Shown here: positions 24,525-46,051 of the stretch, piece after piece
Position numbering within the stretch: position 1 is the stretch's first letter
Layout of the letters: every line of letters starts with the position of its first letter
Assembly (NCBI GenBank): GCA_003565135.1
Contig: PXDC01000250.1
Coordinates: forward strand, 1-46,051
DNA from: Verrucomicrobiota bacterium
GTDB lineage: Bacteria; Verrucomicrobiota; Verrucomicrobiia; Opitutales; T3Sed10-336
Reading direction: 5' to 3'
Length of the DNA: 46,051 nt
The notes under the pieces: generated by a model
What the model was told of the DNA's origin: nothing
What the model saw: the letters and a program-made list of their open reading frames with translations, nothing else
Databases searched by the model: none
Position numbers and translations under genes: made by a program

Positions 24525-24587
24525 TGCTCCGCCATCTCCGCTTCGCTCTGTCGATCCCGATGGAGGGCTATATGAGTGCCATTCGGA

Positions 24588-25286
24588 CTAATCCGCCGGA
24601 CCGGGGGAGGCACGGGTCACCTTGCGCCGCAAAAGGTAGTCCCGCAGCATCTTCAGTCCGACTCCCAGCACCACGAGGATCCCGACCCCGAGAATGGCCT
24701 GGCCGGTATTGCCCTCGAGGAGGGAATCCCCCACCACGATGATCCCGATGCCGTAGCCGACGGAAGTCGGCAGGGAGATGAGAAAAAAAATACCGAATGG
24801 AATCCCGGCCAGGCCGAGGATGTAGGTCTTGAGAAAATTGGGCGGGCCCGGGGTGATTTTGATCAGCAGGGTGACTTTGACAAAATGCTCCTTTTTGACC
24901 TGGGGAATGCGATAGCGGGTCCGGGAAATCAGGCGTTCGAGGAAACCGCGCAGGTAGCGGGTGGCGAGCCAGTAGCAGAGAATGAGATTGAGTCCCTGGG
25001 CGAGGATAGACCCGACCACGCTGATCCAGACACCGAAGGCCGCCCCGGCGAGCAGGAAAAACGGCGTGGTGGGAAAACCGATCGCGGGCAAAAGTGTAAG
25101 GGCGAGAAAAAACGGGACCGGCCCGAGATCCCGGACCCGAAAAAGGAAATCCTCAAAATCCCAGTCGATACCGACAAAATAAACCACCAGACCCGCGAGC
25201 ACGACCAGGCAGAGAACCACGTACCGCATGGGCACGACGGTCCGCGTGAAGAAAGGTCTCTTAAAACGGGGCTTGGAGGGTTCCAT
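24588..25286 (-). CDS. TVP38/TMEM64 (DedA-related) family membrane protein
   Basis: Multi-pass hydrophobic protein with the block VTLLIKITPGPPNFLKTYILGLAGIPFGIFF, typical of SNARE-associated/TVP38 proteins. ATG at 25286; the track start at 25289 is a GTG. Confidence 0.8.
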   Translation of the reverse strand: MEPSKPRFKRPFFTRTVVPMRYVVLCLVVLAGLVVYFVGIDWDFEDFLFRVRDLGPVPFFLALTLLPAIGFPTTPFFLLAGAAFGVWISVVGSILAQGLNLILCYWLATRYLRGFLERLISRTRYRIPQVKKEHFVKVTLLIKITPGPPNFLKTYILGLAGIPFGIFFLISLPTSVGYGIGIIVVGDSLLEGNTGQAILGVGILVVLGVGLKMLRDYLLRRKVTRASPGPAD

Positions 25287-25298
25287 CACACACGTGAT

Positions 25299-26510: not shown

Positions 26511-26520
26511 GGCTGGTTTA

Positions 26521-27417
26521 TTAATGGACAATCTCCGTGCCCACGCCCTTGTCGGTGAAAATTTCCAGCAGCAGGCTGTGGGGCATCCGGCCGTCGATAA
26601 AGTGAACCCGCTGGACCCCTTCTCCCAGGGCGCGGACCGCGGCGTTGACCTTCGGTCGCATGCCCCTGCCGATGGTCCCGCTGCGCTTCAATTCGTCCAC
26701 CTGGCCGACCTGGAGGGTGGAAATAAGCGATGACGAATCGTCCGGATCCGAGAGGAGTCCCGGCACATCGCTCATAAAAACGAGTCGCCGCGCCCTCAGC
26801 GCGCCGGCCACCCGGGCGGCGGCGAGGTCGGCATTCACGTTGTAAACCTGACCCCGCTCGTCCGTGGCCAGCGGGGAAATAACCGGAATCCGGCCTTCGG
26901 CCAGGGCCTTTTTGATCAGTTTGATCTTCACCTCGGTCACTTCACCGACGTACCCGAGGTCGACCGGACGACCCTCGTCGTCCTCGGTCAGCTTGCGGCA
27001 ATGCATGAGGGACTGACCCGGGATGCCCTGGGGTCCGCCCTTCCGCGCCCGGATCATTTCACAGATGTCGAAATTGACCACGTCATTGAGAGTTTTCCGA
27101 ACCACCCCGATCGTCTCGCGGTCGGTCACCCGCAGACCGTTGTTGAAAGCCGGCTCCAGGCCGGCCATTTCCATGGCCCGCGATATGGCTTTGCCCCCGC
27201 CATGAACCACCACCACGTTAATCCCGACGGAGGCGAGAAACACGATGTCCACCGCCAGCCTCGAACGCACTTCGGGATCGGGATCATCCATGAAACTCCC
27301 CCCGTACTTGACGACAAAGGTCGACCCCTTGAAACGCTGGATGTAGGGCAGGGCCTCGAGCAGAACCCGCGCTTTGGCAATGAGTTCGTCTACATTGATT
27401 TCCGGCTGCTTCGACAT
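26521..27417 (-). CDS. argB: acetylglutamate kinase
   Basis: [17 protein letters not shown] and NVNADLAA blocks of the amino-acid kinase family. Confidence 0.93.
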
Positions 27418-30985: not shown

Positions 30986-32296
30986 ATGAAACGACCTCAA
31001 TTCCCCTTCCGGGCGGTGCTCTGCGCGGCCGTACCGGCCCTGATTATGAGCACACTATCCGCCCAGCACCGCCCTGACGGTTTTAATTACGACGAATCCC
31101 GGGTTCCCGAATACACCCTCCCCGATCCGCTTCGCCTGGAGAACGGGGACGCGGTGGAGGATCCGCGCGCGTGGTCGGAAAAACGGCGCCCGGAACTCAT
31201 GGAACTCTTCCGGGAGCATGTCTACGGCCGCCAGCCGGCCGCGCCCGAAGGCATGCGCTTCGAGATTCGCTCGGAGGACACGGAAGCTCTCGGCGGCAAG
31301 GCGACCCGCCGGGAAATAACGGTGCGTTTCGCCGAGGGGCGCGACGACCCCTCCATGGAAATCCTGCTCTACGTACCGAACGGCGCGGACGGACCGGTCC
31401 CGGCCTTTCTCGGTCTCAATTTCTTCGGCAACCACACCGCTCACGCCGATCCTGGCATCACGCTCTCCACCCGGTGGATGCGTTCGAACCGTTCCATGGG
31501 CGTCGTCGACAACCGGGCCACCGAAGCATCCCGGGGCGTGCGCGCCGATCGCTGGCCGGTGGAAACCATCATCGATCGCGGTTATGCCCTCGCCACCATC
31601 TACTGCGGTGATCTCGTTCCGGACCGGGCGGACGGCCTTGAGGCGGACTCAGCCGTCACCGCTTATTTCCGCGAGAAGGAGGGGCGGAACGAGCGCGGGA
31701 AGGACGAATGGGGCGCCATCGCCGCCTGGGCCTGGGGCCTGAGCCGGGCGCTGGATTATTTTGAAACCGCCGACGCTGTCGACGCCGCCCGGGTCTCGGT
31801 GCTCGGCCACTCCAGGCTGGGAAAAACCGCTCTTTGGGCGGGAGCGGAGGACGAACGCTTCGCCATCGTGATTTCCAACAACTCGGGTTGCGGCGGTGCG
31901 GCCCTGAGCCGCCGTCGCTTCGGCGAAACCGTCCGGCGGATCAACACCAACTTCCCGCACTGGTTCTGCCTGAATTTCCGCGACTACAACGATGACGAGG
32001 ACGCCCTTCCCGTCGACCAGCACCAGCTGATCGCCCTGGCGGCCCCGCGGCCGGTTTATGTGGCGAGTGCCACCGAGGACCTCTGGGCGGACCCGAAGGG
32101 CGAATTCCTCTCCGCCAAACACGCCGAACCGGTCTACCGGCTCCTGGGCCTCGACGGACTCGGGGTCGACGAGCTCCCCGCTCCCAACACGCCCGTCGGT
32201 CACACCATCGGTTACCACCTGCGGGAGGGCGGTCACAGCATCACCGAATACGACTGGGAACAGTACCTGAATTTTGCCGACCGCCACCTGAGGTAG
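30986..32296 (+). CDS. alpha/beta hydrolase, CE15 glucuronoyl-esterase-like
   Basis: Signal peptide. Nucleophile block VLGHSRLGKTALWAGAEDERFAIVISNNSGCGGAALSRR matches the G-x-S-R-x-G context of CE15 esterases as I recall it. Confidence 0.65.
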   Translation: MKRPQFPFRAVLCAAVPALIMSTLSAQHRPDGFNYDESRVPEYTLPDPLRLENGDAVEDPRAWSEKRRPELMELFREHVYGRQPAAPEGMRFEIRSEDTEALGGKATRREITVRFAEGRDDPSMEILLYVPNGADGPVPAFLGLNFFGNHTAHADPGITLSTRWMRSNRSMGVVDNRATEASRGVRADRWPVETIIDRGYALATIYCGDLVPDRADGLEADSAVTAYFREKEGRNERGKDEWGAIAAWAWGLSRALDYFETADAVDAARVSVLGHSRLGKTALWAGAEDERFAIVISNNSGCGGAALSRRRFGETVRRINTNFPHWFCLNFRDYNDDEDALPVDQHQLIALAAPRPVYVASATEDLWADPKGEFLSAKHAEPVYRLLGLDGLGVDELPAPNTPVGHTIGYHLREGGHSITEYDWEQYLNFADRHLR

Positions 32297-32362: not shown

Positions 32363-33136
32363 TCATCCTCGGGACCCGGACAATCGCCGCCGTACGATCA
32401 GCCACCCGAGCGCGGCCCCCGCCGCCAGCAACCCGGCGGCAGCCGGCTCCGGAATGGCCACGGTCTCGATCCGCGGATGAAAAGCGGCCGTCGGGTGATC
32501 GGCTGAAGCAAAGGCGAATGCCGCCTGAATGTTGTCGTCCGGCGACCATGAGCTCTGCGGCTGCAGGCGCAGATAGATCCAGGAATCCCCCCCGGCGAGG
32601 TATTCGTCGTAACGCTCGGTCAGGTAGTCGGTGATATCGGCGGACACCGTTCCGGCCGCGGTGTTTTCGTCCAGCAGAATGCCGCCGCCCATGCGGGCCG
32701 GCACGTAGCTACCGGAGGCGAACTGACCGGCCGCGCCGGAATCTTCCGCGGCCAACGGTCCGTCCCGCGTGGCATCGGTTCCCCATATTTCGATGCCAAA
32801 GGGGAGGTTCGATTCCCGCGAGAGCAGCTCGGTGGAAAAAGTTCCCGATGCCGGGGGTTCCGCCAGCAGGGAAAGGTCGAACTGGAAGATGGGCCGCGCC
32901 TCCTCGAGGAGGAAACCGCCCAGCGCCTCCGCGGAAACTCGCAACTCCTGCGCGTCGCCCGCACCCGAACTCACGGTGGAGGGGGATCCCTCGATCTGCT
33001 GCCGACGGCTTTCGTAGTCCGAGGGGTCACCCACAACCACGGACGCCAAACCCGGCGTCGTCGATAACGGAAAGGCCAGGACCGCGGCCGCGGCGAGGGA
33101 ACGGTTCAACGAAAAAAGTTTTTGCATCGTATTCAT
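32363..33136 (-). CDS. PEP-CTERM sorting-domain protein
   Basis: Signal peptide (SLAAAAVLAFPLSTTPGLA). The C-terminus IPEPAAAGLLAAGAALGWLIVRRRL is a PEP motif, a TM helix and a basic cluster. ATG at 33136 (or 33127); the track start at 33169 is a TTG. Confidence 0.8.
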   Translation of the reverse strand: MNTMQKLFSLNRSLAAAAVLAFPLSTTPGLASVVVGDPSDYESRRQQIEGSPSTVSSGAGDAQELRVSAEALGGFLLEEARPIFQFDLSLLAEPPASGTFSTELLSRESNLPFGIEIWGTDATRDGPLAAEDSGAAGQFASGSYVPARMGGGILLDENTAAGTVSADITDYLTERYDEYLAGGDSWIYLRLQPQSSWSPDDNIQAAFAFASADHPTAAFHPRIETVAIPEPAAAGLLAAGAALGWLIVRRRLSGSRG

Positions 33137-33178
33137 ACTACACCTGTTCAAACAGCGGTGGTTGATCAAGGATTCCGT

Positions 33179-35017
33179 TTATTCATCGGATTCAATTCGC
33201 ACGCGAATGATGCGATACCCCTCGTCCGGGACCGGTTCCGTATCGCGGACCACCTGTTCGGTCGGTTCGCCCGGCCCGAATTCGTCGATGATCTGCCAGT
33301 TGGGAAAATCCGAGGTGACCTCGACGATGTACCGGACGTCCTCGCCGGCGGGCAGGCGTTCGAAAAGGATCTCCTGGTACTCCTCGCCGTCCACGGTCAC
33401 TGTGCGCCGGCTCGGCAACCGTTCGAGCTCCGGCTCCGGCCCGCTCATGCCCAGGGCGTAGCGTTCCAGGTTGGTCACCCCGTAGTCGCCCGGGTCGGCG
33501 TCGGGAGCGCTGATCGCCGGATCATTGAGCGCATCGATCCCGTACTCACCGCTTTGCCAGAAGCCGAAGGTATCGCCTGCGGCGATACCGACGCGGAGAA
33601 AGCGGGCCTCGTCCTGACCGATGGCACGATTGTCCCGGGCCGTGACCCACTCGGGAGAGCCGGGATGAATCACATCGACCACCTCCCAACCGTCGAGGGA
33701 GCCGCTGCCCATGACCAGGTAGCGCACATCGGGGGCGTACTGGAGGCGGCGGAAGGAAACGGTCAGGTAGCGCTCGCCGTCGTCCTCGTCGATCCCCTCC
33801 TCCACCGGCGATCCCGACGGGGCGCCGTCGATGTCGAAGGCGTACTGCATGAGGCGCGGCACCCCGGTGCCGTCGGGATCGGCCCGCCGCTGCTCCCGAA
33901 GGGAGTCCTCCAGGTCGTCGGGTTCGGTGTGCAGCGCCAGCCAGTTCTCCCAGTCCGTGGTCACAACAAACGCGTTGCTCTGCCCGGCAGCCCCGGAATC
34001 GGGATCCTGCGCCGTCAGCCGGTAATCACCGGTACTGCCGATCGTGACCAGGTGGCCGTCGAGCACGCCGGCTTCGAACGCCTCGGTGGCGCCGGGGTTC
34101 TCCGCGCCGTTTTCGACTTCCAGCATCACGCTTCCGGAAAACGATTCGGCAAGATCGCCGGCGGCGGTTCGGGCGGTGACGGTGATTTCGAACGGCTGCC
34201 CGGCCATCTGGTCGGCCACGGGCTCGAACGCGAACCACGCGACGTCGACGTCGGGATCGACCACAAAATCCCGCGATACCGCGCCGGCTACGCGGAAGAC
34301 GCCGGTGTAGTCGACCGAGCTGCCGGTCGTCTGGTGCAGGCTTTCGCCGGGGAAGAAGTGAACGGTGAGGGGGAGCAGGTCGTCCGGCTGAAGGGTTTCG
34401 CCGGTTCCGGCGTCGACGAGCTGGTCCAGGTTGAAGCGGGCCTCGCGTTGCCCGGCGACGTCGCCCACCACGGCAAACAAGGGCGCGGCGGCACCTTCGG
34501 CTTCCAGCAGGGCCACGGCCCCGTAAGAGTCCTCGGAGAAACGCACGATCACCTGCCGGGATTCGGTCACGAAGCCGGTGGCCCAGGCGGTCCGGATTCC
34601 CGGAAGGGGGGGGTCCTGGGGGGCGAAGGTTCCGTCGGCCGATTCGACTTGAACGTAGTACCGGGTATCCGGTTCGCCCCCGGACACGCGCACCGCGGCC
34701 AGCCCGCGGTCGCGAACGCCGGCGACAAAATCGGTCCGGGCCGCGCGGGCGGCACGATCCATGGAACCGCGGAAAAACGGGACGGCCTGTGGAAGCAACT
34801 CCCGGCGCAGGGAAGCGGTCACTTCTTCGCTTCCGGCTTCGTCGGCAAAAACACGGATACCGGGCTCGTCCGCCGGCCCGTCGTTTTCCCAGAACACCGT
34901 GAAGCCGTCGGGCGTCGGGTGAACGAGGTGAACGGTCGGGACATCGTCGGCCCAGGCAAGGGAGGCGGCCAATCCGGAAAGAAGGCCCCCGAAAACTAGG
35001 TGGCGAAACCGGCTCAT
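33179..35017 (-). CDS. secreted hypothetical protein (FN3/Ig-like modules plus two copies of a C-terminal beta-sandwich module)
   Basis: Signal peptide MSRFRHLVFGGLLSGLAASLAWA. The ATG overlaps the upstream stop as ATGA (35014-35017). Ig-like block FEITVTARTAAGDL...YRLTAQD. Duplicated tail module (..DVRYLVMGSGSLDGWE.., ..DVRYIVEVTSDFPNWQ..). Confidence 0.7.
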   Translation of the reverse strand: MSRFRHLVFGGLLSGLAASLAWADDVPTVHLVHPTPDGFTVFWENDGPADEPGIRVFADEAGSEEVTASLRRELLPQAVPFFRGSMDRAARAARTDFVAGVRDRGLAAVRVSGGEPDTRYYVQVESADGTFAPQDPPLPGIRTAWATGFVTESRQVIVRFSEDSYGAVALLEAEGAAAPLFAVVGDVAGQREARFNLDQLVDAGTGETLQPDDLLPLTVHFFPGESLHQTTGSSVDYTGVFRVAGAVSRDFVVDPDVDVAWFAFEPVADQMAGQPFEITVTARTAAGDLAESFSGSVMLEVENGAENPGATEAFEAGVLDGHLVTIGSTGDYRLTAQDPDSGAAGQSNAFVVTTDWENWLALHTEPDDLEDSLREQRRADPDGTGVPRLMQYAFDIDGAPSGSPVEEGIDEDDGERYLTVSFRRLQYAPDVRYLVMGSGSLDGWEVVDVIHPGSPEWVTARDNRAIGQDEARFLRVGIAAGDTFGFWQSGEYGIDALNDPAISAPDADPGDYGVTNLERYALGMSGPEPELERLPSRRTVTVDGEEYQEILFERLPAGEDVRYIVEVTSDFPNWQIIDEFGPGEPTEQVVRDTEPVPDEGYRIIRVRIESDE

Positions 35018-35895
35018 GGATGGTCTCCTTCCTGTTCGTGATCCCAGCCATCGATCGGCCGCATGGGCGACGAAAGCCGTTCCAGACCGGGCCGCCCTTC
35101 GTGCCGGAGAATGGTTTCCCCGCCCACCAGCACCACCACGCGGCGGTTTCCGGCGGCGCGGAGCTGGCGGGCTTTCTCCTCCGCCCGACCGTCACCCCGG
35201 TCGATCAGGACCAGCAGGTCGTCCCCGGATGGCTCACCGGCCGATTCCTGGTCCCCGGCCGCCAGTGCGGCATGCGGCGGCACGGTTTCGCCGCTGCGCA
35301 CGACGCGGGCCTCCGGAAAAGCCGCGGCGAGATCGGTCAGTTCCGGCTCGTCCCCGCTCTCCTCGAGCGGCGCCGCCTGCGGCCCCGACGGTTCCCGGCG
35401 CAGGTCCACCAGGGTCACCCCGCTGCCCTGGGCGGCGGTGAGTTGTTGATAGGTGATCCCGGGAACGGAATCCGTTCGCAGGCCCGACGCCCCGGTAATG
35501 GATAACCCGGCCGACTCCCAACCGGCAAGGCCGCCGCGAAGCGTGCGGGCGGTGCGGCCGTCGCGGAGATTGTCGGCATAGTCGGCGGCGAGAACCCGTC
35601 CCAGGCCATCGCCGTAGAGCACGATCTCGCGGTTGCGCGGGAGCGGGCGGCTGAAAAGGACGCTTCCCGGAATGTTGATGGCGCCGGGAAGGTGTCCCCG
35701 GCGGTACTCCGGGTTGTCGCGGATGTCGACGACGAGTGGGGGCGAAGCGGATTCCAGTCGCTCGGCCAGTTCGGCCGGCGACATTCCCGTGACGGCGTCG
35801 GTTCCCGGCGAGAGCGCCAGGCCGCACCCGGCAATCCCGCTCAGAATAATCGTTTTCAGCTTCGGCTTCATGATACTTCGTTTCCCTTGGTTCAT
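35014..35895 (-). CDS. lipoprotein with two rhodanese-homology domains lacking the catalytic cysteine
   Basis: Lipobox LSGIAGC. Rhodanese blocks VVDIRDNPEYRRGHLPGAINIP and REIVLYGDGLGR...GGLAGWE, with a second domain LVLIDRGDGRAEEKARQL. The only Cys is the lipobox Cys. ATG at 35895 overlaps the upstream stop as ATGA; the alternative ATG is 35871. Confidence 0.75.
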   Translation of the reverse strand: MNQGKRSIMKPKLKTIILSGIAGCGLALSPGTDAVTGMSPAELAERLESASPPLVVDIRDNPEYRRGHLPGAINIPGSVLFSRPLPRNREIVLYGDGLGRVLAADYADNLRDGRTARTLRGGLAGWESAGLSITGASGLRTDSVPGITYQQLTAAQGSGVTLVDLRREPSGPQAAPLEESGDEPELTDLAAAFPEARVVRSGETVPPHAALAAGDQESAGEPSGDDLLVLIDRGDGRAEEKARQLRAAGNRRVVVLVGGETILRHEGRPGLERLSSPMRPIDGWDHEQEGDHP

Positions 35896-38800
35896 TCGGG
35901 TTTCCATCCGCTTACCGGCCCGGCGAGTTCCACCAACAGGAGGGCGACCTCGGGAATGGGGAAATCCGGTCCCACCAGTGACCCGTCCTCCACCTCCACC
36001 GCGCGCCACTGTCCGCTGTAAGCGTCGAGGAGGCGGACGGCATTCACGTTGTCGCCACCGATCTGGGCCACCAGGTCGGAGACCCGGTAGCCGGCCGGGA
36101 ACGCGCTGTACCCGAGGGCGTTGATCCCGGCCTCGAAATCGACGGCCTCCCTCGCCCGGTCCCCGAGATCGAGGAGCCGGCTTTGGTCGAAGCGCATCCA
36201 GAGGAAATCCCCGGCCACGAGGGCAAAATCCTCGCCCGAGGGGGCGCCCGCCGCGTCATCCCATACCGCGACCTCGGTCACCACTTCCGGGGCCAAACTG
36301 TGATACCGTTTGACGCTCTCCACACCGGCGGCTTGCCGCCAGCTCTCCAGGAGGGCGAAAGCCCCGCCGAAGCGGTCGGCCAGGGTGGCGGTCACCACCA
36401 CCGCGTTACGGTTTTGGAAGACCGGCTGCAGGGCCGGCAATTCGGCCGTGCGCACTTCCGTGGAGCCACCGGAGTCCTCTTCCCACACGAGGTGGCCGCC
36501 GGCCAGGCCGGCGCGGCGTTTGGCACTCAGGGAATTGGTCAGCGGCACGGAATTGCCGGATTCCAGGTTGTGCAGGACAAAGTTGGCGCTCTCCGGTCCG
36601 GCCGAGTCCTCCTCCACGATCATCCAGTACCCCTGGAGGTAGGGCCGGGTCTGATTGTGGGCGCTGTCGGTCAGGCGGAGTTCCTCGTCGCGCAGCAGGT
36701 CGAAGCCGGAAATCTGCACCACACCGTCGCGGGTGTCCTGCCAGACGATCCAGTGCCCGAAGATCGCCGGATGGTACTGGCCGTCGATAATCCCGGTGAT
36801 CCGGCGTCGTTCTCCCGATTCCAGGTCGGCAAAGTAAATCTCGCCCGGCCCGACGTCGCGCTGGTCGCGCCAGACCACACGTCCGGCGTGAATCGCCGCC
36901 TCCACCTGATCGGCGGGTCCCGGGTAGACCTCGGCGGTTTCGCCGGTCTCCAGGTCGCGGGCGACGAGGATTTCCGGGGCCGACGAGTCTCCGGCCGGCC
37001 GGCTCTGCCACACGACCCACGGGTAATCGACGATCGGCCGGGTCTGCCGCAGGGAGGCGTCATCGGTCAACCGCTCGGGTGCCGTTCCGGCCTCGAGGTC
37101 GGCCATCCAGATGTCCCAGCCGCCGTCGGACCGGCGTTTCTGCCAAACGGCGTAACGCCCGTCGGTGTGCGGCCGCTCGCCGGAGTCGAGAAGCTCCGCC
37201 GCGCCACTTTCAGCGGTCAGGTCACCGGCAAAAATCCGCCATTGCCCTTCCGGGCGGGCCTGCCAGACCGCGCGGCCGCCGCGGGCCGACGGGTGCCGAC
37301 CGGCGGCCGAAACCGACGCCAGGAGTTCCGACTCCGCGGTCAGGTTCCCGATCCGGACCAGCCGCGTGGCGAAACGGTCGTGCCCGACGCCGTCGGAGAG
37401 GGTCACCTTCACCGTGTACCAGCCCTCGGGCAGGAGAATTCCGTCATCGTCGCGTCCGTCCCATTCGAACACCACCGACTGCCCGCCGACATCGCCGAGC
37501 GACTCGGTTCGGACAAGGGTCAGAGTCTCGAGGTCGGAGCCGTAGGACGGATCGTAGGTCCAGGTGTAACGGGTCGGCGAGTCGATCGACTGCCATTCGC
37601 CGCCGCGCTCGCCTAAGAGGTCGAGGCGCTGTTCGCCCGGATCGAGCGGGCCCGGCTCGAACGACTCCCCGACGGGGGCCTCGGGCCGGAAGAAGCTTTC
37701 GTTCAGCGTCCAGCGGAACAGGTCGAGGTCCTCGGGACCCTCGACGGTGATCACCGGCCGTTCCTCGTGCGAGGGCGTCGCCGGCAGGCCGGCCAGGTCA
37801 AACTCGTGGGCGTCCCCGGACACGGTCCAGGAGACCGCCAGGGCCTCCTCCTCGGGCAGGTAGGGGCCGCTGTGGTGGCGGGCCAGCACTTCGAGAGCCA
37901 CCGATCCGGACAGGTCCTCAAGTACCAGCGGATCGGATACGGCCCGTTCCTCCGACCACTCGCCGCCGTCGACGCGGTAGCGGTAAAAGTCGGCGTGGGC
38001 GCCCGACACCGCGATCTCGGCGTGGTCGCGGGGAGTCGGCGTCGGCGGCACGCCCTCCAGCACCGGCCAGGCCACGACCCCGGCGTACACCTCGGCCACC
38101 GCCTCGAGCGGCACGGGAGCCGCCTCGGCCTCGAAGGCGATAGCGGCGCGGTCCGGCCGCACCGAAAGCGAGTCGCCGCTCAGGGTCACCACCATCGGCT
38201 CGGAATCGAACTCGGCGAAGCCCGGGGCCGCCCCCGGCAGAACCACCGTGGCGGCGTTCAGCTCTTCTTCGTTGCCGAAAGCGTCCTCGGAGTAGTACTC
38301 GATCAGGTAGGTGCCGGGTTCGTCCAGGCTGAACGGAATGGCCGGCTGAAAGTCGCCGCCGTCGATCCGGTAGTACATGCTGACCGGGCTGTCGTCCTCG
38401 GCGATGAAGTAAATATCCGTGTCGCGGGTTACGTAGACCGTACCGTCGTCGGCCACCGTGTAGTCGCCGGCAAAATAAATCCCGGTCACCGGCGGGTCCG
38501 TGTCCTCTTCCGTGGCGGCGTAGTGCACGGTGTATTCGTAGTACTGGCCCAGTTCGACGAAATCGAAAACATGCAGGTACTCGAGACGGCGGTTGGTCGG
38601 CCGCTCGTAGCGGTAGCTGGTCCAGGTATTGTGAGGATTGAGCTCCTTCCCGTCGGAGCGGACCACCTTGTCGATGTCGTAGCGGTCCTGTCCCGGATCG
38701 TCGACCCGGATGTAGCCCCAGTTCTCAAAATCGGTCTGCACCCCGACCACCGCCGTCCGGTCCTGGTCGAGGTCCCGCACGACTTCGGCCTGCTGGAGGT

Positions 38801-39896
38801 GGTTGACCGGCACCACGTTCCCCTCGCTCTCGTACATGGCGTCGGGGATCAGGTTCTCGGTATCGTCGGTCACGGCCAGAAAATCGGTCACGTCGTCCCG
38901 GCCGGGCTGGTCGTTGAGAACCTCGCGGAGCAGGAAGTGGGCGTCGAGGGAAACGATGACCGAGGTCTCCTCGCCGCCGAGTTCGGAGGCGTGGGTGTAG
39001 CTGGCGTTGAAATCGACAAACTCCCCGGACAGCGACACGATCATGTCCCAGGCCCCCTTGCGGGCCTCCCCGGGCGGGATGTCGCCGAGATCGACCACGA
39101 GACTGGCGCGGTCGAGGGGCGAATCCATGACGCGGGCGCCCAGGAGCTGGGCGACCAGCGGAAGCTGCTGCTGGTTGTCGACGATTTTCGGCTGCTGCGA
39201 ATCGATCTGCAGCTCGCGCGCGGTGCCATAGCCCACGTTGCGCACCAGCACCCCGAGGGTGAAAGGAACGGGGCTTTCCACACGGTCGGTGAAGGGATCG
39301 TTGGCCTGGACATCGCGGGGGAGGAAGTAGGTGATGTCGAGCTGGGGTTCGGGCCGGACCGTGATCGTGTCCGGGAGGGCGAACATGTTTTCCCTCGGAA
39401 TCTCCACCCCGCCGAGTTTGCCGCCCAGGTCGCAACCGATCAGGTATTCGCGTCCCCGGGGATCGGTCCCGCCGGCGTCGATGGTCGGGATGATGAACCA
39501 GCGGATGACGGCCGTGCGGGTGGGCTGGATGACGCCGTCGCCGTCCACCCGGTTGACAAACTGCAGCTCGGGATCGCGGACAAAAAAGAGGTCCGAGGCA
39601 TCGCTGCCGTCCTCCGGATCTTTAAAGGTCAGCTCGGCAAAGAAATCGGTAATCGCGTCTTCCCCCGCATTGTTGGTGACCTCCAGGGTCGCCTCGAAGC
39701 CGATACGCTCCAGGGTCAATTCCTGCTCGATCTCGATCCGCGCCTGCGCGCACCACCCCTGGAACTGTTGCTGGGCGTCCGCCAGGGGGGACGCGACGAG
39801 CAGCACCGCCAGCCAACCGGGCCGCCGGTACCATTTTCCGACTCCCCGGCCAAGGGTTCGCAATCCAAATTCCACCATAAACGCTATCGTACTCAT
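35892..39896 (-). CDS. large secreted protein: Ig/CARDB-like modules, OmpL47/chitobiase-C-like module, FlgD-Ig-like module, seven-blade beta-propeller
   Basis: 1334-aa ORF with a signal peptide (WLAVLLVASPLADA). DIYFIAEDDSPVSMYYRIDGG...YYSEDAFGNEE. VVFEWDGRDDDGILLPEGWYTVKVTLSDG. Seven repeats of about 45 aa of the type h-VWQ-x-R-x5-7-I-h-x-x-DL. The start overlaps the giant ORF stop as ATGA. Confidence 0.8.
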   Translation of the reverse strand: MSTIAFMVEFGLRTLGRGVGKWYRRPGWLAVLLVASPLADAQQQFQGWCAQARIEIEQELTLERIGFEATLEVTNNAGEDAITDFFAELTFKDPEDGSDASDLFFVRDPELQFVNRVDGDGVIQPTRTAVIRWFIIPTIDAGGTDPRGREYLIGCDLGGKLGGVEIPRENMFALPDTITVRPEPQLDITYFLPRDVQANDPFTDRVESPVPFTLGVLVRNVGYGTARELQIDSQQPKIVDNQQQLPLVAQLLGARVMDSPLDRASLVVDLGDIPPGEARKGAWDMIVSLSGEFVDFNASYTHASELGGEETSVIVSLDAHFLLREVLNDQPGRDDVTDFLAVTDDTENLIPDAMYESEGNVVPVNHLQQAEVVRDLDQDRTAVVGVQTDFENWGYIRVDDPGQDRYDIDKVVRSDGKELNPHNTWTSYRYERPTNRRLEYLHVFDFVELGQYYEYTVHYAATEEDTDPPVTGIYFAGDYTVADDGTVYVTRDTDIYFIAEDDSPVSMYYRIDGGDFQPAIPFSLDEPGTYLIEYYSEDAFGNEEELNAATVVLPGAAPGFAEFDSEPMVVTLSGDSLSVRPDRAAIAFEAEAAPVPLEAVAEVYAGVVAWPVLEGVPPTPTPRDHAEIAVSGAHADFYRYRVDGGEWSEERAVSDPLVLEDLSGSVALEVLARHHSGPYLPEEEALAVSWTVSGDAHEFDLAGLPATPSHEERPVITVEGPEDLDLFRWTLNESFFRPEAPVGESFEPGPLDPGEQRLDLLGERGGEWQSIDSPTRYTWTYDPSYGSDLETLTLVRTESLGDVGGQSVVFEWDGRDDDGILLPEGWYTVKVTLSDGVGHDRFATRLVRIGNLTAESELLASVSAAGRHPSARGGRAVWQARPEGQWRIFAGDLTAESGAAELLDSGERPHTDGRYAVWQKRRSDGGWDIWMADLEAGTAPERLTDDASLRQTRPIVDYPWVVWQSRPAGDSSAPEILVARDLETGETAEVYPGPADQVEAAIHAGRVVWRDQRDVGPGEIYFADLESGERRRITGIIDGQYHPAIFGHWIVWQDTRDGVVQISGFDLLRDEELRLTDSAHNQTRPYLQGYWMIVEEDSAGPESANFVLHNLESGNSVPLTNSLSAKRRAGLAGGHLVWEEDSGGSTEVRTAELPALQPVFQNRNAVVVTATLADRFGGAFALLESWRQAAGVESVKRYHSLAPEVVTEVAVWDDAAGAPSGEDFALVAGDFLWMRFDQSRLLDLGDRAREAVDFEAGINALGYSAFPAGYRVSDLVAQIGGDNVNAVRLLDAYSGQWRAVEVEDGSLVGPDFPIPEVALLLVELAGPVSGWKPE

Positions 39897-42800
39897 TGTT
39901 CGCTCACCTCCTGTCCTCCTTCGAGGTCGATAAACAGGCCGCCGCAGAGGTCCTCGGCGAGGATGCCGTCAGCGAAGAAGGCCCGCTCTCCGGTAACCTG
40001 GAAATTGTAAACGGTATGGGTTCCCTCGATACGCTCGTTGGCCACCACGCGCCAGAACCGGCGCTCGGAATCGGTCAGCCAGTCGCCTTCATCGAGGGAG
40101 TCGACAAAGCGCCAGCCTTCGCCGTCGACCCAGAGTCGGTGCTCGCCGGTGACCCGGAGCTCCCGGGTTTCCTCCCCCCCGACGGCCACCAGTCGCAGAT
40201 GCCGCAGGTTCTCCGATTCCAATTCGTAGGCCTTGCTGACCTCGGCGTAGGCACCGTTGATGCCGGTACCGGTGCGCACGAGGTCGCCGCGGGTGATCGT
40301 TTCGATGGGCCGGCGGGCGCCGTCGGCCATGAGCACCTCGGTACCCGCGGGAAAGCACCCGTCCCCGCCCTGTTGGAAGGGAGACGGCGTCCGGCTCCCC
40401 GGCGGGCCTGAAGAACGGCTTCCCGGACCCGGCATTCCGCCGAAGAACGACTGCGTGGCGCAGCCGATCAGCTCGCCCAGCGCCTGGCCGGCCATTTCGG
40501 CAAAGTCGAGGACACTGGTCGGAATATCCCGCGCGGCCATGATCCCGCTTGCCGCGGCCAGGCCGACGGCGGCGGCCGTACCCAGATTTCCGGTACGCTG
40601 ACTGACGTACTCGCCCTGGGCCGCCATGTCGGCGATGGCGCGAATGCCCTCGGCAAAATCGGCGGTACTGGTCGCCCCGCAGGACGTATCGAGTCCTGGC
40701 ACCAGGGGGACCGCCTCCGGATCGCTGCCCGCATCCGCTTCCAGGGCGAGCGCAGTGGGTTCGGGTTCCCCGTTCCCGCCGAAATCCTCCGCCACCCGGA
40801 GACGGGCCGGAATCTCCACCCGTTGCTCGGGGCCGAGTTCCGGAATGTACTCGATCAGGGGCCGCACGGTCAGCACTCCCGAGCTGGTTCCGGTAATATC
40901 GATGTCACTGACCTTGATCAGGCCCTCGTTCCGCAGTTCGTAGGTAATGGTGGTCTCGAAGCCCGGCTCGACGTTTTCGAACTCGTGCATGGGCGGCGTC
41001 ATGACCAGCACCGGGGCGGGCACCCGGGTTTCGAAGGTCTGCTCGAGCACGATGTCGTACCGGTCGGTAAACGGCACGGGCACGACGTTGAAGCGGACGG
41101 TCACCAGGCTTCGGTCGAGGATGGGCTGGACCGGCACGACCTGGTCGGGCACCACCTCCACCGTACCGGCCCGGCCGGAATGGCCCGACGCGGTGACCTG
41201 CCAGGACCACTGCCCTTCCTGGAGATCCTCCACCAGGAGCTCGCCCTCGGCATCGGTGCGGTAGGGACCGCGCTCGATGTTGTTGGTGGTGCTGCGGAGT
41301 CGGATGGAGGCGTTGGGCACGGCCTGTTCGACGATGTTCTCCACCTGGAAAAGAACGTCGCCCTCAAGATCGGAAGTGATCTGGGCGAAGAGGTTCACCT
41401 CGAAATCCCCCACCGCGTTATCGCCGGTGACCAGGATCACGTCGTCGTAGAAACCGAGGTCGACGTCGTCGGACGGCAGGTAGACAACCTGGAAGGAGAA
41501 AGAGTCGCCGACGGCGAGGTCGGGGAGGTGGGCGTAACCGTCGTCCTCCACCGGAAGGTTGATATGCATCCAGTCAATTTCCTGGGGAGGCCGCAGCCGG
41601 ACGCCCTCCAGAGACCGCAGGCCGTCGTTTTCGATGACCACCTCGCGGCTGCGCTGATCGCCCCGGTCGATGGAGAGGTCGACGTACCCGGCCGTGGGAC
41701 GGGCCACGCTGAGGATGGGGATGGCGGGAAGCAGCGTCAGTTCGCCCTCGAAGCGGGTGGTGGCGCCCTCGGCCGTACGGAAGGCAAACTCCGCCATGGC
41801 GTAATCGGGCGCGTCGTCCGCGGCCTCAAGTTGCAGGGTCACACGGCTGCGGGAGGAGGCCGGCAATGCGTCGGGGGCGCCAAGCAATTGACCGGTAACG
41901 GTGTCGATTTCGGATTCCACCGGCTCCCCGGTCCCCGGGTCCATCTCCACTACCCAGGCGCGGAAGGAATCGAGCTCGAAGCCTTCGAGAGGCACGTCCC
42001 CGGGGTTGTTCATGCGGATATCGAAGTCCATCGTATCATTCTTGGACATACGGATATTCCCGCGCCCCGGATTCGAATAGATTCGGTGGATGGTGACCTC
42101 GGCCTGGTTGAGGACGTCGACGACGTCGGGGTGGGCGGCCCAGAAGGAAATGGTTCCGGAGAAGCCGGGGAAGGGATCGTAGGGAAACGCAAAGTTGCCC
42201 TCGGCATCGGTCTCGATTTCCTCGAACCAGGTGTACCCGCGGGCGGAGAATCCGATGCGCAGCGTCGTTCCCGGCCGCGGTTCCCCGGTCTCGCGGTCGA
42301 CGGCGCTGCCGCTGAGCGGTATGGTGGCGTCGTTGGCAAAGGTATCCCCGTCGACCTGGAGTTTACCGAAGTACTCGGTCTCGGTCAGGGTGGTTTCCAT
42401 GGTTCCCGAGATCGGACCGGAAACCCGCTCCCGCGACGTGCCGATCCCGTTGTAAAGGGTGGGCGCCTCTACCCGGATGGTCGCCTGGCCCTCTTCGCTG
42501 AGCCCTTCCGGGACGAGAATATCGAGAAAGGTCCCCTCCCGCGATTCCCCCGGAGGAATCCGCAGGTAGCCGCGCCCGTCGGACGTGAATTCGAGACCGG
42601 AGATCGCCCGGTCGAAGGACGCCCCGCTGACCGCTTCGCCGAAGCGGTCGAGGACGGTGAGCTCCAGTTCCCCCGGTTCCCCGCCGAAGGCCTCGACCAC
42701 GACGACTTCGGCGTCGGCATAGCCGCGGTTGTGGATACGGGCACGGAACTCGTTGAGACCCCCGGCCAGGGGAACGCTCGGCGCGGAGACGGAAATCCGG

Positions 42801-45800
42801 GTCGGGGGCGAGCGGTAGTCGGAATAGGTCCGGTCGAAGAGGTACCGGGCAGAGGAAATCCCGTCGTCCGACTCCTGCTTGACCTCGACGGTGAACAAGT
42901 GTCCGCCGGACAAGCGGGTCACGGCCGGGTAAGGGAGACTCCAGACGCCGTCCCCGTACGCGGGGACCGTTTCCGAAACGTCGATTCCCTCCTCATGGGT
43001 GCCGGTCGTGGCGTGGGTCCGGCGCACGAGCGCTTCGGTGACCGGCCACGCTTCGTCGGCACGGTTAACCGCGCGGATCTCGTACCGGTCGAAATAGCTG
43101 CCCATCAGGGACCGCTCCTGACCGTCGGCATCCGGATTGATGCGCAGGTCGAGCTCCACCGGGTAGACGGTAACCGGGCGGGCCGCGCTCTCGCGGTCCT
43201 GGTCGTCGATGGCCCGCACGGTGTAGACGGTGAGGTCGTCCTCGACGAGGTCGGGATCCTGAAAGTGCTGCTGGGTAAGCGGGTCGCCGGTCAATTGCTC
43301 GCCGTCGCGGTAGACGTGGAAACCCACGGCCGCGTCGTCGGGCGAGTCCCACTGGAGAAGGGGTCCGAGTCCCGGTTCGACAGTAGCAACCAGATCGGTC
43401 ACGGCGCCGACAAAGAGCTCGATCGTCACCGGATCGCTGAGGTTCTCATTGCCGACCTGGTCGACCGAGGCGACCGCGTAGCTGATGACGCCCCGGGGCG
43501 GATGATCGGAGATTTCACGCGGTGTCGTCGTTGTTCGGATGACTTCGCCGTCACGGTACACGCGGTATTGGTGCGGGACGTCCCCTTCCGAGGGGGCGTC
43601 CCAGTTGATGCGGACACCGGTTTCGCCGAGTTCAACGGTGACGTTCTCGGGCTTTTCCGGGGGAGTCCGGTCGGACTGGGTCACAAGCATGGGCGAAGGA
43701 TCGCTCTCCGCTCCCTGACGATCGGCGGTGACAACGTAGCGGTAGATCCCGTCCTCGGGCGGGAGATCCAGGTATTCGAGGTCGTCGAGACCGGAAACAA
43801 TACGCGTCTCCGGCGGCTGGATACCGTCGCCGGCTTCGCGGTACAAGTGATAAACCTCAGCTTTGTTCGAGGCGGACCAGGAGACGCGGATGTAGCCCCC
43901 GGGGAGGATTTCTCCGGCGATCTCCAGCGGCCGGTCGGGAGGAGGCGGGGTGTCGCCGGTATAAATCTCGAGCTCCTCTCCCTCGGTGACACGTGTGCCC
44001 TCGTTGCCGAGTGGGTCGACCGTCTGGAGATTGAAATACCCGATCCCGGTACCCATCGATTCCTCCAGCACCAGCTCCCCGGACCACGAGGTCCCGCTGC
44101 CGGAAAGATCGAGGGAAACCTCGGACGCACCCGGCGGGTCGAAGGCCAGGGAGGGCGGAGCCCCCTGCGGTGCCGGCTTGCTGAGTTCGAGTTCCACCTC
44201 GATCGCGATTCCCTCCTCCGGAATCGCTACCGGAGGCGCGGCGTCGACCGTCACAATACCGGTGGGACGGGTGAGGTCAAAGACGAGCGGGTTGCCCTCC
44301 GGCGATCCCGAAAACGTGTTGCCGAAAAGGTCGGTGCCGCTCACACGCACCACCGCTTCTCCAGACGAGGCGGAAAGGTCGTTCACCTGGTAGGTGCCGG
44401 CATATCGGTTCGTGCCGTCGGCGGTAAGCGATACGGCCACCGGCTGGGAGAAACCCTCCGGCCGGATGGTCAGGCTCGGGGTGCCGTCCAGGGGTTCGCC
44501 GGCCTGAAGAGTGATCCCCAGTTCGCCCGGACCCACCGGCATGGGAAGGTCGTAGGACACCGTAAAGTCCGGCGGCGTGGTGTTGAGGGTGACCGACTTG
44601 ACGTTGGAAAGGCCGCTGACGTTACCCGCCGCATCGAACCCGACCACGGCGATCCCGTACTCGCCGTCGGGCAGGTCTTCGAGGAAGTAGCGGGTGGTGG
44701 CGAGCAGGTCCGTTTCGCCTTCCGCATCGGCATACGACTCGAGGGAATCCTCGCTCCAGACAATGCGGAACGCGGTCGCGCGTTTGCCATCATCGGCGAA
44801 ACGCCACCGGACTTCGACGCCGAGATCGCGGTCGAACTCGACGACTTCGAGAATCGCCGGTGCGGGCGGGACGGTGTCCCGCCTGACCGTGACCGGCGAC
44901 GAGGAGATCGATCCGGCCGGATCGCTCACGCGGACGACGAATTCGTTGCTTCCCTCGACCAGGGGAACGTCGCTGAAAAGGAAGGTGCCGTCGGCAAGCG
45001 CCTGACCTTCGGCCACCGTGCTGGCATTGCGGCGCAGGCGGACCGGGGCGTCCGGTTCGGCGGTTCCGGACACGTCGACGTCGCCATCCGCGGTGATCAG
45101 GCCATCGGCCGGCGCGGCGATCACCGGCCGGGCCGGCGGCTGGGGGCGGACGAGGACATTGACCTCGCGCGCGGTCACGTTACCCGCGGCATCGACCGCC
45201 TCGAGCGCCACGCGGTAGAGGTCCTCCTCCATTTCGCGAATGTCCCAGGTTCCGGAAAGCGGGGAGGATGCCGACTGCAGGACCGTTTCACCGTTCACCG
45301 TGAACGCGAGTGAAACGAGGCCGAGTTCGGCCTCGGCCGCACCGGTCACGTCGATCGGCCGGTTGATTTCGTCGCCGTCAGCCAGGCTGAATGCGGTGAT
45401 TTCGGGCCCGCCGGTGACGTACTCGATGTCGAGGGTAAGGGTTTCGCTGATGACGCCGGTCGATCCGAGGAACTGAACGTAGACCGTTTTGAAACCGCCG
45501 GTATCGGAGAGTTCGAACCGCTGCTCGATGGGGGCGGCGGCGTAGAGGTCATCGCTGCCCGGGTCGGTGTCGATATCGACAAACGGCACGCCGACAAAGG
45601 CCGAGTCCTCGCTGGCGCGGAAGGCGACGGCATTGGCGGAGGCGAACACGAGATCGATTTCGGGATTGCCGACACGGACCACGCCGTCCGCGGTGCGAAC
45701 GTCCGGATAAAGCACCGGCTCATCGTCCAGGGGCTCTCCCGCGTCGACCGGTCCGGAAAGACCGTCGGCAATGCCACCGGTGTCGTCGGTCCCCCACCAG

Positions 45801-46051
45801 TTCCCGCGTGCGTCGACAAGGGATCCCTCCCCGACGGTTGCGTTTAGGGTGTTCCGCTTGAGAACGGATTGGTTGATTTCGAGAGTCGAACCGCCGGACA
45901 CCTCGGCCCCGGTGTCATTAAAAATCAGGTACGCGCCCTCCGTAACAAGAGTGGCGCCGCCTTGCAGGGAGAGCCCGGCCGGGCTGTTGTGGGTCGCGCG
46001 CAACCCGGTGATTTCGGGCGAATCGGTTCCGTCGAGGGTCAGGCCCCCGCC
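39893..46051 (-). CDS. giant secreted adhesin-like protein, 5'-truncated by the window edge, ending in a Hint (Hedgehog/intein-like) domain
   Basis: The reading frame stays open to position 46051, so the TTG at 46003 in the track is not the real start. The visible part has a beta-helix end (..GNWWG..) and many Ig/FN3-like modules, including three tandem FN3 units with (Y/F)H(L/V)YR(E/D)G-type cores around 43150-43930. It also has carboxypeptidase-regulatory-like modules (IRLRSTTNNIERGPYRTDAEGELLV) and a C-terminal GDG-CFPAGTEVLMADG...VTGEH Hint domain. Confidence 0.85.
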   Translation of the reverse strand, partial: GGGLTLDGTDSPEITGLRATHNSPAGLSLQGGATLVTEGAYLIFNDTGAEVSGGSTLEINQSVLKRNTLNATVGEGSLVDARGNWWGTDDTGGIADGLSGPVDAGEPLDDEPVLYPDVRTADGVVRVGNPEIDLVFASANAVAFRASEDSAFVGVPFVDIDTDPGSDDLYAAAPIEQRFELSDTGGFKTVYVQFLGSTGVISETLTLDIEYVTGGPEITAFSLADGDEINRPIDVTGAAEAELGLVSLAFTVNGETVLQSASSPLSGTWDIREMEEDLYRVALEAVDAAGNVTAREVNVLVRPQPPARPVIAAPADGLITADGDVDVSGTAEPDAPVRLRRNASTVAEGQALADGTFLFSDVPLVEGSNEFVVRVSDPAGSISSSPVTVRRDTVPPAPAILEVVEFDRDLGVEVRWRFADDGKRATAFRIVWSEDSLESYADAEGETDLLATTRYFLEDLPDGEYGIAVVGFDAAGNVSGLSNVKSVTLNTTPPDFTVSYDLPMPVGPGELGITLQAGEPLDGTPSLTIRPEGFSQPVAVSLTADGTNRYAGTYQVNDLSASSGEAVVRVSGTDLFGNTFSGSPEGNPLVFDLTRPTGIVTVDAAPPVAIPEEGIAIEVELELSKPAPQGAPPSLAFDPPGASEVSLDLSGSGTSWSGELVLEESMGTGIGYFNLQTVDPLGNEGTRVTEGEELEIYTGDTPPPPDRPLEIAGEILPGGYIRVSWSASNKAEVYHLYREAGDGIQPPETRIVSGLDDLEYLDLPPEDGIYRYVVTADRQGAESDPSPMLVTQSDRTPPEKPENVTVELGETGVRINWDAPSEGDVPHQYRVYRDGEVIRTTTTPREISDHPPRGVISYAVASVDQVGNENLSDPVTIELFVGAVTDLVATVEPGLGPLLQWDSPDDAAVGFHVYRDGEQLTGDPLTQQHFQDPDLVEDDLTVYTVRAIDDQDRESAARPVTVYPVELDLRINPDADGQERSLMGSYFDRYEIRAVNRADEAWPVTEALVRRTHATTGTHEEGIDVSETVPAYGDGVWSLPYPAVTRLSGGHLFTVEVKQESDDGISSARYLFDRTYSDYRSPPTRISVSAPSVPLAGGLNEFRARIHNRGYADAEVVVVEAFGGEPGELELTVLDRFGEAVSGASFDRAISGLEFTSDGRGYLRIPPGESREGTFLDILVPEGLSEEGQATIRVEAPTLYNGIGTSRERVSGPISGTMETTLTETEYFGKLQVDGDTFANDATIPLSGSAVDRETGEPRPGTTLRIGFSARGYTWFEEIETDAEGNFAFPYDPFPGFSGTISFWAAHPDVVDVLNQAEVTIHRIYSNPGRGNIRMSKNDTMDFDIRMNNPGDVPLEGFELDSFRAWVVEMDPGTGEPVESEIDTVTGQLLGAPDALPASSRSRVTLQLEAADDAPDYAMAEFAFRTAEGATTRFEGELTLLPAIPILSVARPTAGYVDLSIDRGDQRSREVVIENDGLRSLEGVRLRPPQEIDWMHINLPVEDDGYAHLPDLAVGDSFSFQVVYLPSDDVDLGFYDDVILVTGDNAVGDFEVNLFAQITSDLEGDVLFQVENIVEQAVPNASIRLRSTTNNIERGPYRTDAEGELLVEDLQEGQWSWQVTASGHSGRAGTVEVVPDQVVPVQPILDRSLVTVRFNVVPVPFTDRYDIVLEQTFETRVPAPVLVMTPPMHEFENVEPGFETTITYELRNEGLIKVSDIDITGTSSGVLTVRPLIEYIPELGPEQRVEIPARLRVAEDFGGNGEPEPTALALEADAGSDPEAVPLVPGLDTSCGATSTADFAEGIRAIADMAAQGEYVSQRTGNLGTAAAVGLAAASGIMAARDIPTSVLDFAEMAGQALGELIGCATQSFFGGMPGPGSRSSGPPGSRTPSPFQQGGDGCFPAGTEVLMADGARRPIETITRGDLVRTGTGINGAYAEVSKAYELESENLRHLRLVAVGGEETRELRVTGEHRLWVDGEGWRFVDSLDEGDWLTDSERRFWRVVANERIEGTHTVYNFQVTGERAFFADGILAEDLCGGLFIDLEGGQEVSEQ

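Follow-up and report, generated by a model that had tools for sequence, protein, structure and literature searches.

What does a run of five tightly packed minus-strand genes, headed by a gene for a giant protein, encode in a Verrucomicrobiota bacterium, and do the genes belong together? The window discussed here is a stretch of 46,051 nucleotides, contig PXDC01000250.1 (assembly GCA_003565135.1), numbered on the forward strand. In order of transcription the operon encodes a giant protein that ends in a Hint domain, a 1334-residue partner, a tandem rhodanese-like protein, a 612-residue secreted protein with an fn3-like N-terminal part, and a small PEP-CTERM protein. The first four genes form a conserved cassette, and there is about an even chance (roughly 0.5) that this cassette builds a large, non-enzymatic fibre complex that is exported by Sec and stands at the envelope or cell surface. 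Its location, the formation of a complex, the activity of the Hint domain and the biological role are all deduced from sequence.

That the four genes belong together is indicated by a scan of one genome per species, which returned 80 loci, with gene order tested by tblastn using the window proteins. The order Hint-terminated giant, 1334-residue protein, tandem rhodanese, fn3-like protein is present in essentially all of the 80 loci with enough flanking sequence. In about 70 loci the core of the giant is collinear over all 2052 residues visible in the window, at approximately 35-75% identity, and across phyla both large proteins maintain 40-50% identity over their full length, which would fit extensive protein-protein interfaces. 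For the 612-residue protein, homologues in most loci match the N-terminal part alone (about 250 amino acids by tblastn). The tight packing of the genes also recurs: a 4-nucleotide overlap joins the giant gene to the 1334-residue gene in 60 of 74 loci, and such overlaps are present at the other two junctions in 27 of 70 loci and in 21 of 56. Because synteny and start/stop overlaps are both conserved, the genes are better regarded as a functional unit than as independent adhesins. This is what a first-pass annotation of the DNA had proposed, naming loss of synteny elsewhere among the observations that would speak against it; the order is kept across the survey. The proposed unit shrinks, however, from five genes to four, as the PEP-CTERM gene has homologues only in the closest Opitutia relatives (L002-L009). 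The "fixed stoichiometry" and "assembled complex" of that annotation are to be read as inferences.

Most of the 80 loci are from Verrucomicrobiota (Opitutia, Puniceicoccaceae, Akkermansiaceae), and one carrier, Haloferula sargassicola NBRC 104335, is in culture. Other carriers belong to Kiritimatiellales/Pontiella, Lentisphaerae, Desulfobacterales, Deferrisomatales, Myxococcota/Bradymonadia, Omnitrophota and Gammaproteobacteria, the last including Thiohalocapsa PB-PSB1. The first-pass annotation had suggested looking for the homologues beside Hint-terminated giants in the Planctomycetes-Verrucomicrobia-Chlamydiae group; they do co-occur there, but the cassette is not specific to that group and has spread between phyla, apparently by horizontal transfer. 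Six cassette contigs (L006, L014, L018, L022, L033, L067) bear the names Bacteroidales, Bryobacteraceae, Bifidobacteriaceae/Bifidobacterium or Limnocylindria; mistakes in binning or labelling seem a likelier source of these names than true hosts, and the phylum range is to be taken cautiously. Three genome bins hold two cassettes each on separate contigs (L008/L025, L007/L078, L021/L046), which points to paralogous copies that may differ in their heads.

Within the window, ORF (open reading frame) calls and translations confirmed the five minus-strand genes between positions 32363 and 46051 (Table 1). The three ATGA overlaps lie where they had been annotated, and the last gap, between the 612-residue and PEP-CTERM genes, estimated beforehand at about 40 nucleotides, measures 42. 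A Shine-Dalgarno-like GGAGG or AAGGAG is found upstream at two of the three overlaps, and terminator-like hairpins within the operon are no commoner than in shuffled sequence. Read by eye, the 1334-residue, rhodanese-like, 612-residue and PEP-CTERM proteins all begin with signal-peptide-like N-termini. The domain content annotated at first pass (beta-helix, FN3/Ig-like and carboxypeptidase-regulatory-like modules, a seven-bladed propeller, an FlgD-Ig-like module and a terminal Hint) was reproduced by Pfam, NCBIfam and homology.

Table 1. Positions of the operon genes, their junctions and the main protein regions in the window
Feature	Coordinates	Strand	Basis
Giant protein	39893 to beyond 46051	-	Frame open to window end; 2052 amino acids visible; N-terminus past window
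End of right-handed beta-helix region (giant)	45782..46051	-	Beta_helix/NosD/Beta_helix_4 matches at homologous positions of relatives
Ig-like, fn3, CARDB/MG-like and CarboxypepD_reg (transthyretin-like) beta-sandwich array (giant)	40772..45781	-	Pfam, PDB profile search
Pre-Hint linker (giant)	40358..40771	-	Cys 1791 and 1864 conserved, flanking Ala/Gly-rich segment; then Gly/Pro/Ser-rich spacer
C-terminal Hint domain (giant)	39932..40357	-	Cys1 = residue 1899 (Gly, then CF); block-B T-x-x-H; C-terminal D-x-C-G
ATGA stop/start overlap, giant/1334-residue gene	39893..39896	-	Read from sequence
1334-residue protein	35892..39896	-	ORF; signal peptide, N-terminal module, Ig-like domains, propeller, C-terminal domain
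N-terminal module of about 420 amino acids (residues ~47-460 of 1334)	38517..39758	-	Several beta-sandwiches; starts with near-invariant Cys49 in C-x-x-V-K-I-x-I-x-Q-E-L-T-L-E-R
Seven-bladed PD40/TolB-like beta-propeller (1334-residue protein)	36441..37328	-	TIGR04275 repeats; AF2 pLDDT 90.8; Foldseek top matches TolB/peptidase-type propellers
Conserved C-terminal domain of ~180 amino acids, mixed alpha/beta (1334-residue protein)	35895..36440	-	Alignment; AF2 secondary structure; no PDB sequence match
ATGA overlap, 1334-residue/rhodanese gene	35892..35895	-	Read from sequence
Tandem rhodanese-like protein	35014..35895	-	ORF; Pfam Rhodanese 8.8e-18
ATGA overlap, rhodanese/612-residue gene	35014..35017	-	Read from sequence
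612-residue secreted protein	33179..35017	-	ORF; no Pfam/NCBIfam match
PEP-CTERM protein, 257 amino acids	32363..33136	-	ATG start; signal peptide and PEP-CTERM tail

The giant is seen in the window through its C-terminal part, within which its residues are numbered here. Full-length relatives have 3218, 3474 and 6850 amino acids, and complete members of the family range from 3000 to 6850 or more. In the survey the 10-kb flank is too short for 75 of 77 giants; an alignment of seven sequences gave an upstream view at six loci, of which two show genes ahead of the giant. From such relatives the conserved core is seen to start about 440 amino acids upstream of the window, inside the beta-helix region, and to be preceded by variable heads, in which DUF642, LamG, lectin, FG-GAP or beta-helix domains occur, and by an ordinary Sec signal peptide. 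Pfam matches in the giant are to Big_13, Big_7, fn3, RGI_lyase, CarboxypepD_reg and the terminal Hint; the beta-sandwich array gave beta-sandwich matches alone and no enzymatic domain by Pfam and PDB profile search. The conservation profile peaks at residues ~1600-1700. A word-based homologue search with the giant was dominated by BapA-type Ig-repeat adhesins, with P0126, P0127 and a few distant relatives as its useful matches. At locus L087, positions 187-7023 hold a 1454-residue beta-helix ORF resembling a giant head and a 525-residue ORF with a strongly basic N-terminus, just upstream of a 3672-residue giant; this layout looks as if an insertion had split a giant gene.

The cysteines of the giant are confined to its end. 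All four in the window (residues 1791, 1864, 1899 and 2036) lie within the last 260 amino acids, and in homologues cysteine density is 18 per 1000 residues in the last 300 amino acids versus 1.4 per 1000 in the core. The Ala/Gly-rich segment of the pre-Hint linker is probably helical. In this linker, 43 of 71 homologues have a hydrophobic segment above a Kyte-Doolittle threshold of 1.5, and the window protein has none; a transmembrane hairpin or glycine-zipper pore at this position was considered and is left as a remark.

The Hint domain that follows is invariant in its key motifs. The Gly-Cys1-Phe start, the block-B T-x-x-H (here T-G-E-H) and the C-terminal cysteine of D-x-C-G are the same throughout an alignment of 76 sequences, and the nearest solved structures are 8w20 (1.6e-8) and the BIL domain 2lwy. 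The domain carries the residues that an N-to-S acyl shift of the Gly-Cys1899 bond would require. The C-terminal Asn and the downstream extein nucleophile required for splicing are absent, the domain ending in D-x-C-G about 16 residues before the stop codon, and the Hint should thus be at most of an N-terminal cleavage or transfer type. Those ~16 variable residues are all that lies downstream of the Hint, here and in about 75 homologues.

The 1334-residue partner belongs to a family of more than 500 clusters, 45-81% identical over 97-100% of their length, almost none of which has a functional name. Its signal peptide spans residues 1-41 and ends in ADA, and the mature chain starts QQQFQGWC49; Cys49 and Cys155 are its cysteines. 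A frameshift fusion of the giant with this protein was ruled out, as the latter starts with a conserved signal peptide and mature N-terminus of its own. The glutamines of this N-terminus, Q-Q-Q-F-Q-G (39758-39773), show a QQQ run kept in the Verrucomicrobiota family and not in the wider superfamily; given the transglutaminase-like genes at some related loci, the run is conceivable as a Gln donor. Pfam and NCBIfam recognize FlgD_ig, an OmpL47-type domain and seven beta_prop_Msarc-type blades in the protein. An AlphaFold 2 (AF2) model of residues 38-800, with a predicted local distance difference test score (pLDDT) of 86, is all beta, a chain of Ig-like (immunoglobulin-like) sandwiches for which Foldseek returned generic Ig arrays only (among them GhpA, SiiE and the Sap S-layer protein). 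A second model, of residues 801-1334 (pLDDT 91), shows an FlgD-type sandwich, the seven-bladed propeller and the C-terminal domain of about 180 amino acids, with no hydrolase domain found in this region by AF2 and Foldseek.

The N-terminal module of this partner, which no Pfam or NCBIfam model matches, is widespread. Residues 38-520 were searched as a single-sequence query against 1.84 billion representative proteins, and the superfamily comprises 2624 clusters (50% identity) at E <= 1e-3 and 1628 at E <= 1e-30. The module mostly follows directly on a signal peptide, its cysteine is kept in 115 of 147 sequences, and what comes after it varies: propeller, LamG, kelch or RHS repeats. Internal copies at 28-36% identity occur in two animal records, at residues 3486-3898, 5168-5593 and 6718-7125 of a Saccoglossus kowalevskii protein (P0253, XP_006822956.1) and at residues 1758-2114 and 3195-3589 of one from the shrimp Halocaridina rubra (P0262, KAK7084501.1), which also has teneurin-type EGF and CarboxypepD_reg matches. 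These could be horizontal transfers, as proposed for teneurins, or assembly contamination. The idea of the module cysteine as a specific acceptor of a Hint thioester is weakened by its presence both where there is no Hint and in the animal internal copies.

The rhodanese-like protein carries two Rhodanese domains and, as had been annotated, is cysteine-free beyond its IAGC motif. In an alignment of 68 sequences the catalytic cysteine is replaced by Asp in both domains family-wide, in loops reading Y-x-D-G and I-D-x-G-D-G, and the protein lacks the catalytic cysteine that a rhodanese sulfurtransferase requires. The IAGC lipobox, listed at first pass among the export signals, is present here but is not a family trait: it occurs in 6 of 71 homologues, and the rest have mostly ordinary signal peptides. 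The idea that the propeller pairs with a rhodanese lipoprotein in the manner of TolB and Pal was considered and is weakened by the same count.

In the 612-residue protein, the N-terminal ~250 amino acids form an fn3/PAP_N-like domain and a second beta domain, and this is the part found cassette-wide, where members match Pur_ac_phosph_N/fn3; the first ~290 amino acids gave beta-sandwich matches only. Its C-terminal half (33179-34150) has two repeats with a D-P-D-G...N-L/M...Y-A...G motif and a beta-rich segment with no family match, and these repeat modules are limited to close relatives. The PEP-CTERM tail reported on the fifth protein, IPEPAAAGLLAAGAALGWLIVRRR, scores 18.1 bits against TIGR02595 (cut-off 16) and has the PEP motif, transmembrane helix and basic tail of PEP-CTERM substrates. 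No exosortase (EpsH) was found among the ten window ORFs scanned (46 kb of genome). There is no cysteine in the mature rhodanese-like, 612-residue and PEP-CTERM proteins of the window.

The Hint is the sole catalytic-type domain found in these proteins; everything else examined is beta-sandwich or propeller, plus the small C-terminal domain of the partner. The absence of an "enzymatic core" noted at first pass holds in that no intact catalytic site appeared in the examined regions by Pfam/NCBIfam, AF2 and Foldseek, but the autoprocessing-type Hint has to be excepted. Residues ~290-612 of the 612-residue protein and the ~137-residue pre-Hint linker were covered by the initial Pfam/NCBIfam scan alone.

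Sister loci show which parts of this arrangement are variable. Locus L084 (Xanthomonas hyacinthi) encodes a TIG protein, a 514-residue protein, a giant core without Hint, an RHS toxin joined to the giant gene by a 4-nucleotide overlap, a small ORF, a module protein 36% identical over 518 amino acids, and type II secretion G and F genes. In L092 the order is transglutaminase-like protein, giant and RHS, with a gap of 77 nucleotides between the last two genes, and in L085 a transglutaminase-like lipoprotein precedes a Hint-terminated giant. L094 and L095 have a 1083-residue protein, a module protein, a rhodanese and a transglutaminase-like protein; L096 (Elusimicrobiota) has an RHS gene and, further along, a rhodanese and a 5605-residue module protein. 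In L093 a giant with a Cys/Gly tail in place of the Hint is accompanied by a module-plus-propeller protein, a rhodanese and an fn3-like protein. The protein P0379 is a fusion of the module to RHS repeats. These loci have in common the giant core and the module protein and, in most cases, the cysteine-less rhodanese, to which the Hint, RHS, transglutaminase-like and PEP-CTERM genes are add-ons. The RHS sister loci tie the cassette loosely to Sec-dependent loci of the polymorphic-toxin type.

The flank of the operon is housekeeping: the end of the operon faces a convergent glucuronyl-esterase-like gene on the plus strand (30986-32296; GCE_fung 2.6e-31), and past that gene, by synteny with L002 and L003, come rplM, rpsI, argC and argJ and, at a greater distance, DprA and transaldolase. 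The cassette sits amid these genes with no obvious mobile island around it. Elsewhere in the window, a 660-residue plus-strand ORF without Pfam match (24576-26558) lies opposite a minus-strand ORF (25299-26531) and is probably spurious, a product of high G+C content.

In the favored reading, all of the cassette proteins would be exported by Sec. The giant would present a variable N-terminal head on a conserved stalk of about 2500 amino acids made of beta-helix and beta-sandwich domains, and the 1334-residue, rhodanese-like and fn3-like proteins would be the base that holds this fibre. The Hint may cleave itself off or hand over the C-terminus of the giant, whose Cys-rich tail would dock onto the N-terminal module of the partner, possibly through disulfide or other thiol chemistry, and the head would engage a ligand (a surface, a polysaccharide or another cell) in contact or adhesion. 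Physical assembly is argued from the translational coupling, the four-gene synteny across phyla and the unusually high full-length conservation. That the tail of the giant meets the N-terminus of its partner, with the Hint processing the end of the giant, is proposed tentatively because thiols concentrate at those two ends.

Several observations weigh against this reading. The Pfam matches of the Hint domain (Hint_2, Hom_end_hint, PT-HINT and Vint, with E-values from 2e-4 to 4e-3) all fall under the gathering score. Nor is the Hint universal: the giants of L093, L084 and L092 end in Cys/Gly-rich tails without it, so Hint chemistry cannot be essential to the basic design, and the module cysteine persists even in loci whose giant lacks a Hint. 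The four conserved genes were not found to encode any outer-membrane translocator, membrane anchor or sorting signal; the surface location is thus an assumption, and all four proteins could be periplasmic.

This last point is the starting place for a different account, in which the TolB-like propeller protein and its partners organize a giant periplasmic protein as a scaffold that stabilizes or shapes the envelope. The Sec-type signal peptides throughout, the lack of an outer-membrane export component in the conserved genes, the likeness of the propeller to periplasmic TolB and the housekeeping neighborhood all agree with it. Heads carrying lectin, LamG, FG-GAP and kelch domains are nevertheless typical of extracellular binding, some lineages have linked PEP-CTERM and type II secretion genes, and a patchy distribution with multiple copies per bin does not suit a core envelope function; the scaffold is distinctly unlikely. 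Lower still in probability is the simplest account, that the genes encode co-expressed but independent adhesins or glycan-binding proteins which do not assemble and whose Hint is inactive. Its appeal is that the recognizable non-Hint domains are common adhesin modules and that the Hint scores stay under Pfam thresholds; it has difficulty with four-gene synteny and conserved overlaps over at least six phyla, with the unusual full-length conservation of both large proteins and with the invariance of the Hint catalytic residues, and is regarded as improbable.

Contact-dependent antagonism of the polymorphic-toxin kind is the likeliest of the rival accounts, although it too is unlikely. Here the giant would be the filament and the Hint a releasing peptidase, with a payload that is either an unrecognized effector (the hydrophobic pre-Hint segment or part of the 1334-residue protein) or encoded elsewhere. 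The sister loci speak for this account: an RHS/YD-shell toxin directly follows the homologous giant core in L084 and L092, a small and possibly immunity-conferring gene follows the RHS gene in L084, P0379 joins the module to RHS repeats, and in L096 the module lies near an RHS gene. In addition, the Hint is closest to 8w20, an "intein C-terminal splicing domain" protein, and has a weak PT-HINT match, and transglutaminase-like proteins occur at some loci, inactive transglutaminase domains having been noted in Sec-dependent RHS toxins (PMC3482391). In the window itself and in about 75 related loci, however, the ~16 variable residues alone follow the Hint; the five proteins contain no toxin domain or RHS repeat and none resembles an immunity gene product; the 1334-residue protein is strongly conserved rather than polymorphic; and the hydrophobic segment is weak or absent in the window protein.

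A bolder extension of the fibre reading, which must be called doubtful, makes the Hint a one-shot protein ligase instead of a plug that simply cleaves itself off. The last Gly of the giant would pass by way of a thioester to an envelope nucleophile (the conserved cysteine or the amino terminus of the 1334-residue protein, a lipid, or peptidoglycan), fixing a fibre of several thousand residues covalently to its base, and the giant core, module and cysteine-less rhodanese would define a new and widespread class of apparatus that depends on Sec and serves display or delivery. If true, this would be a bacterial counterpart of Hedgehog-style C-terminal modification, and different lineages would arm the apparatus with a Hint, RHS toxins or transglutaminase-like proteins.

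Were the fibre complex real, a recurrent and unannotated apparatus would be built around proteins of 3000-7000 amino acids in Verrucomicrobiota, Kiritimatiellota, Desulfobacterota, Myxococcota, Gammaproteobacteria and others. A curated model of the ~420-residue module would relabel thousands of "hypothetical" neighbors of giant genes, and the kinship with RHS toxins suggests that a single scaffold may serve adhesion or antagonism. The Hint-terminated giant offers a testable case of Hint chemistry in the processing or anchoring of bacterial surface proteins, and the cultured Haloferula sargassicola makes experiments feasible.

How, finally, does the cassette compare with known systems? The first-pass annotation had recognized in the gene set no described secretion, adhesin, S-layer or toxin system, and Pfam, NCBIfam, PDB-sequence, Foldseek and literature searches place it in none. 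A term search of a 2012 polymorphic-toxin survey and a 2023 giant-gene preprint found no description of the set. The 2012 survey (Zhang et al., PMC3482391) names Hint domains, beta-propellers, Ig domains and inactive transglutaminases as accessories of Sec-dependent RHS toxins; the term search of it turned up no "rhodanese", and neither the giant core nor the module was among the terms searched for and found there. The resemblance to Sec-dependent RHS/YD polymorphic-toxin loci is that sister loci share the giant core and module protein, with an RHS/YD toxin right after the giant. The window cassette itself, in contrast, has no RHS repeats, C-terminal toxin or immunity gene, and its Hint is terminal instead of pre-toxin. 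No Pfam or NCBIfam toxin family matches the window proteins; the genes next to the giant encode the conserved 1334-residue, rhodanese-like and 612-residue proteins, all with signal peptides, where an immunity gene would be expected; and there is no RHS_repeat match and no RHS/YD or filamentous-hemagglutinin repeat, RHS being found only in L084, L092 and L096.

The Hint shares its fold family, N-terminal Cys and block-B T-x-x-H with BIL and pretoxin Hints, the nucleophile being present in the 76 aligned sequences, and, as in Hedgehog, it forms the C-terminus of a large secreted protein. Unlike these, it lacks a C-terminal Asn and nucleophile (no splicing is expected) as well as a sterol-recognition region, and no toxin comes after it. 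Chains of many Ig-like beta-sandwiches are common to the cassette, to the adhesins BapA, LapA and SiiE and to the GhpA grappling hook of Aureispira, which are the top Foldseek matches of the partner's N-terminal half, but they have no such conserved partner set and the similarity is at fold level, with TM-scores (template modelling scores) of 0.1-0.2. The giant ends in a Hint where a type I secretion substrate would carry its signal; no HemolysinCabind, BapA-prefix or RTX match was obtained, and no type I secretion genes are present in the operon or in the loci of relatives. As to two-partner secretion, the window stops short of the N-terminus of the giant; L085 supplies a full-length relative, which has an ordinary signal peptide and no two-partner secretion family in its Pfam list, and no Omp85-type gene appears in the gene lists of the loci inspected.

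TolB has the propeller closest to that of the 1334-residue protein, but with six blades instead of seven, and the partner has no TolB N-terminal domain, about 850 amino acids of Ig-like sequence upstream and no tol-pal context. Teneurin and Tc-toxin assemblies offer a further parallel in the transthyretin-like domain near the end of the giant, the propeller in the partner, the YD shells of sister loci and the animal record that combines the module with teneurin-type EGF repeats; the cassette differs in its lack of a YD shell, in the distribution of the parts over separate proteins and in that no FN-plug or NHL domain was detected, and the resemblance is a lead only. Taken together, the parts are familiar domain types, so the cassette is not categorically new; it is a variant within the giant secreted fibre and polymorphic-toxin-like loci.

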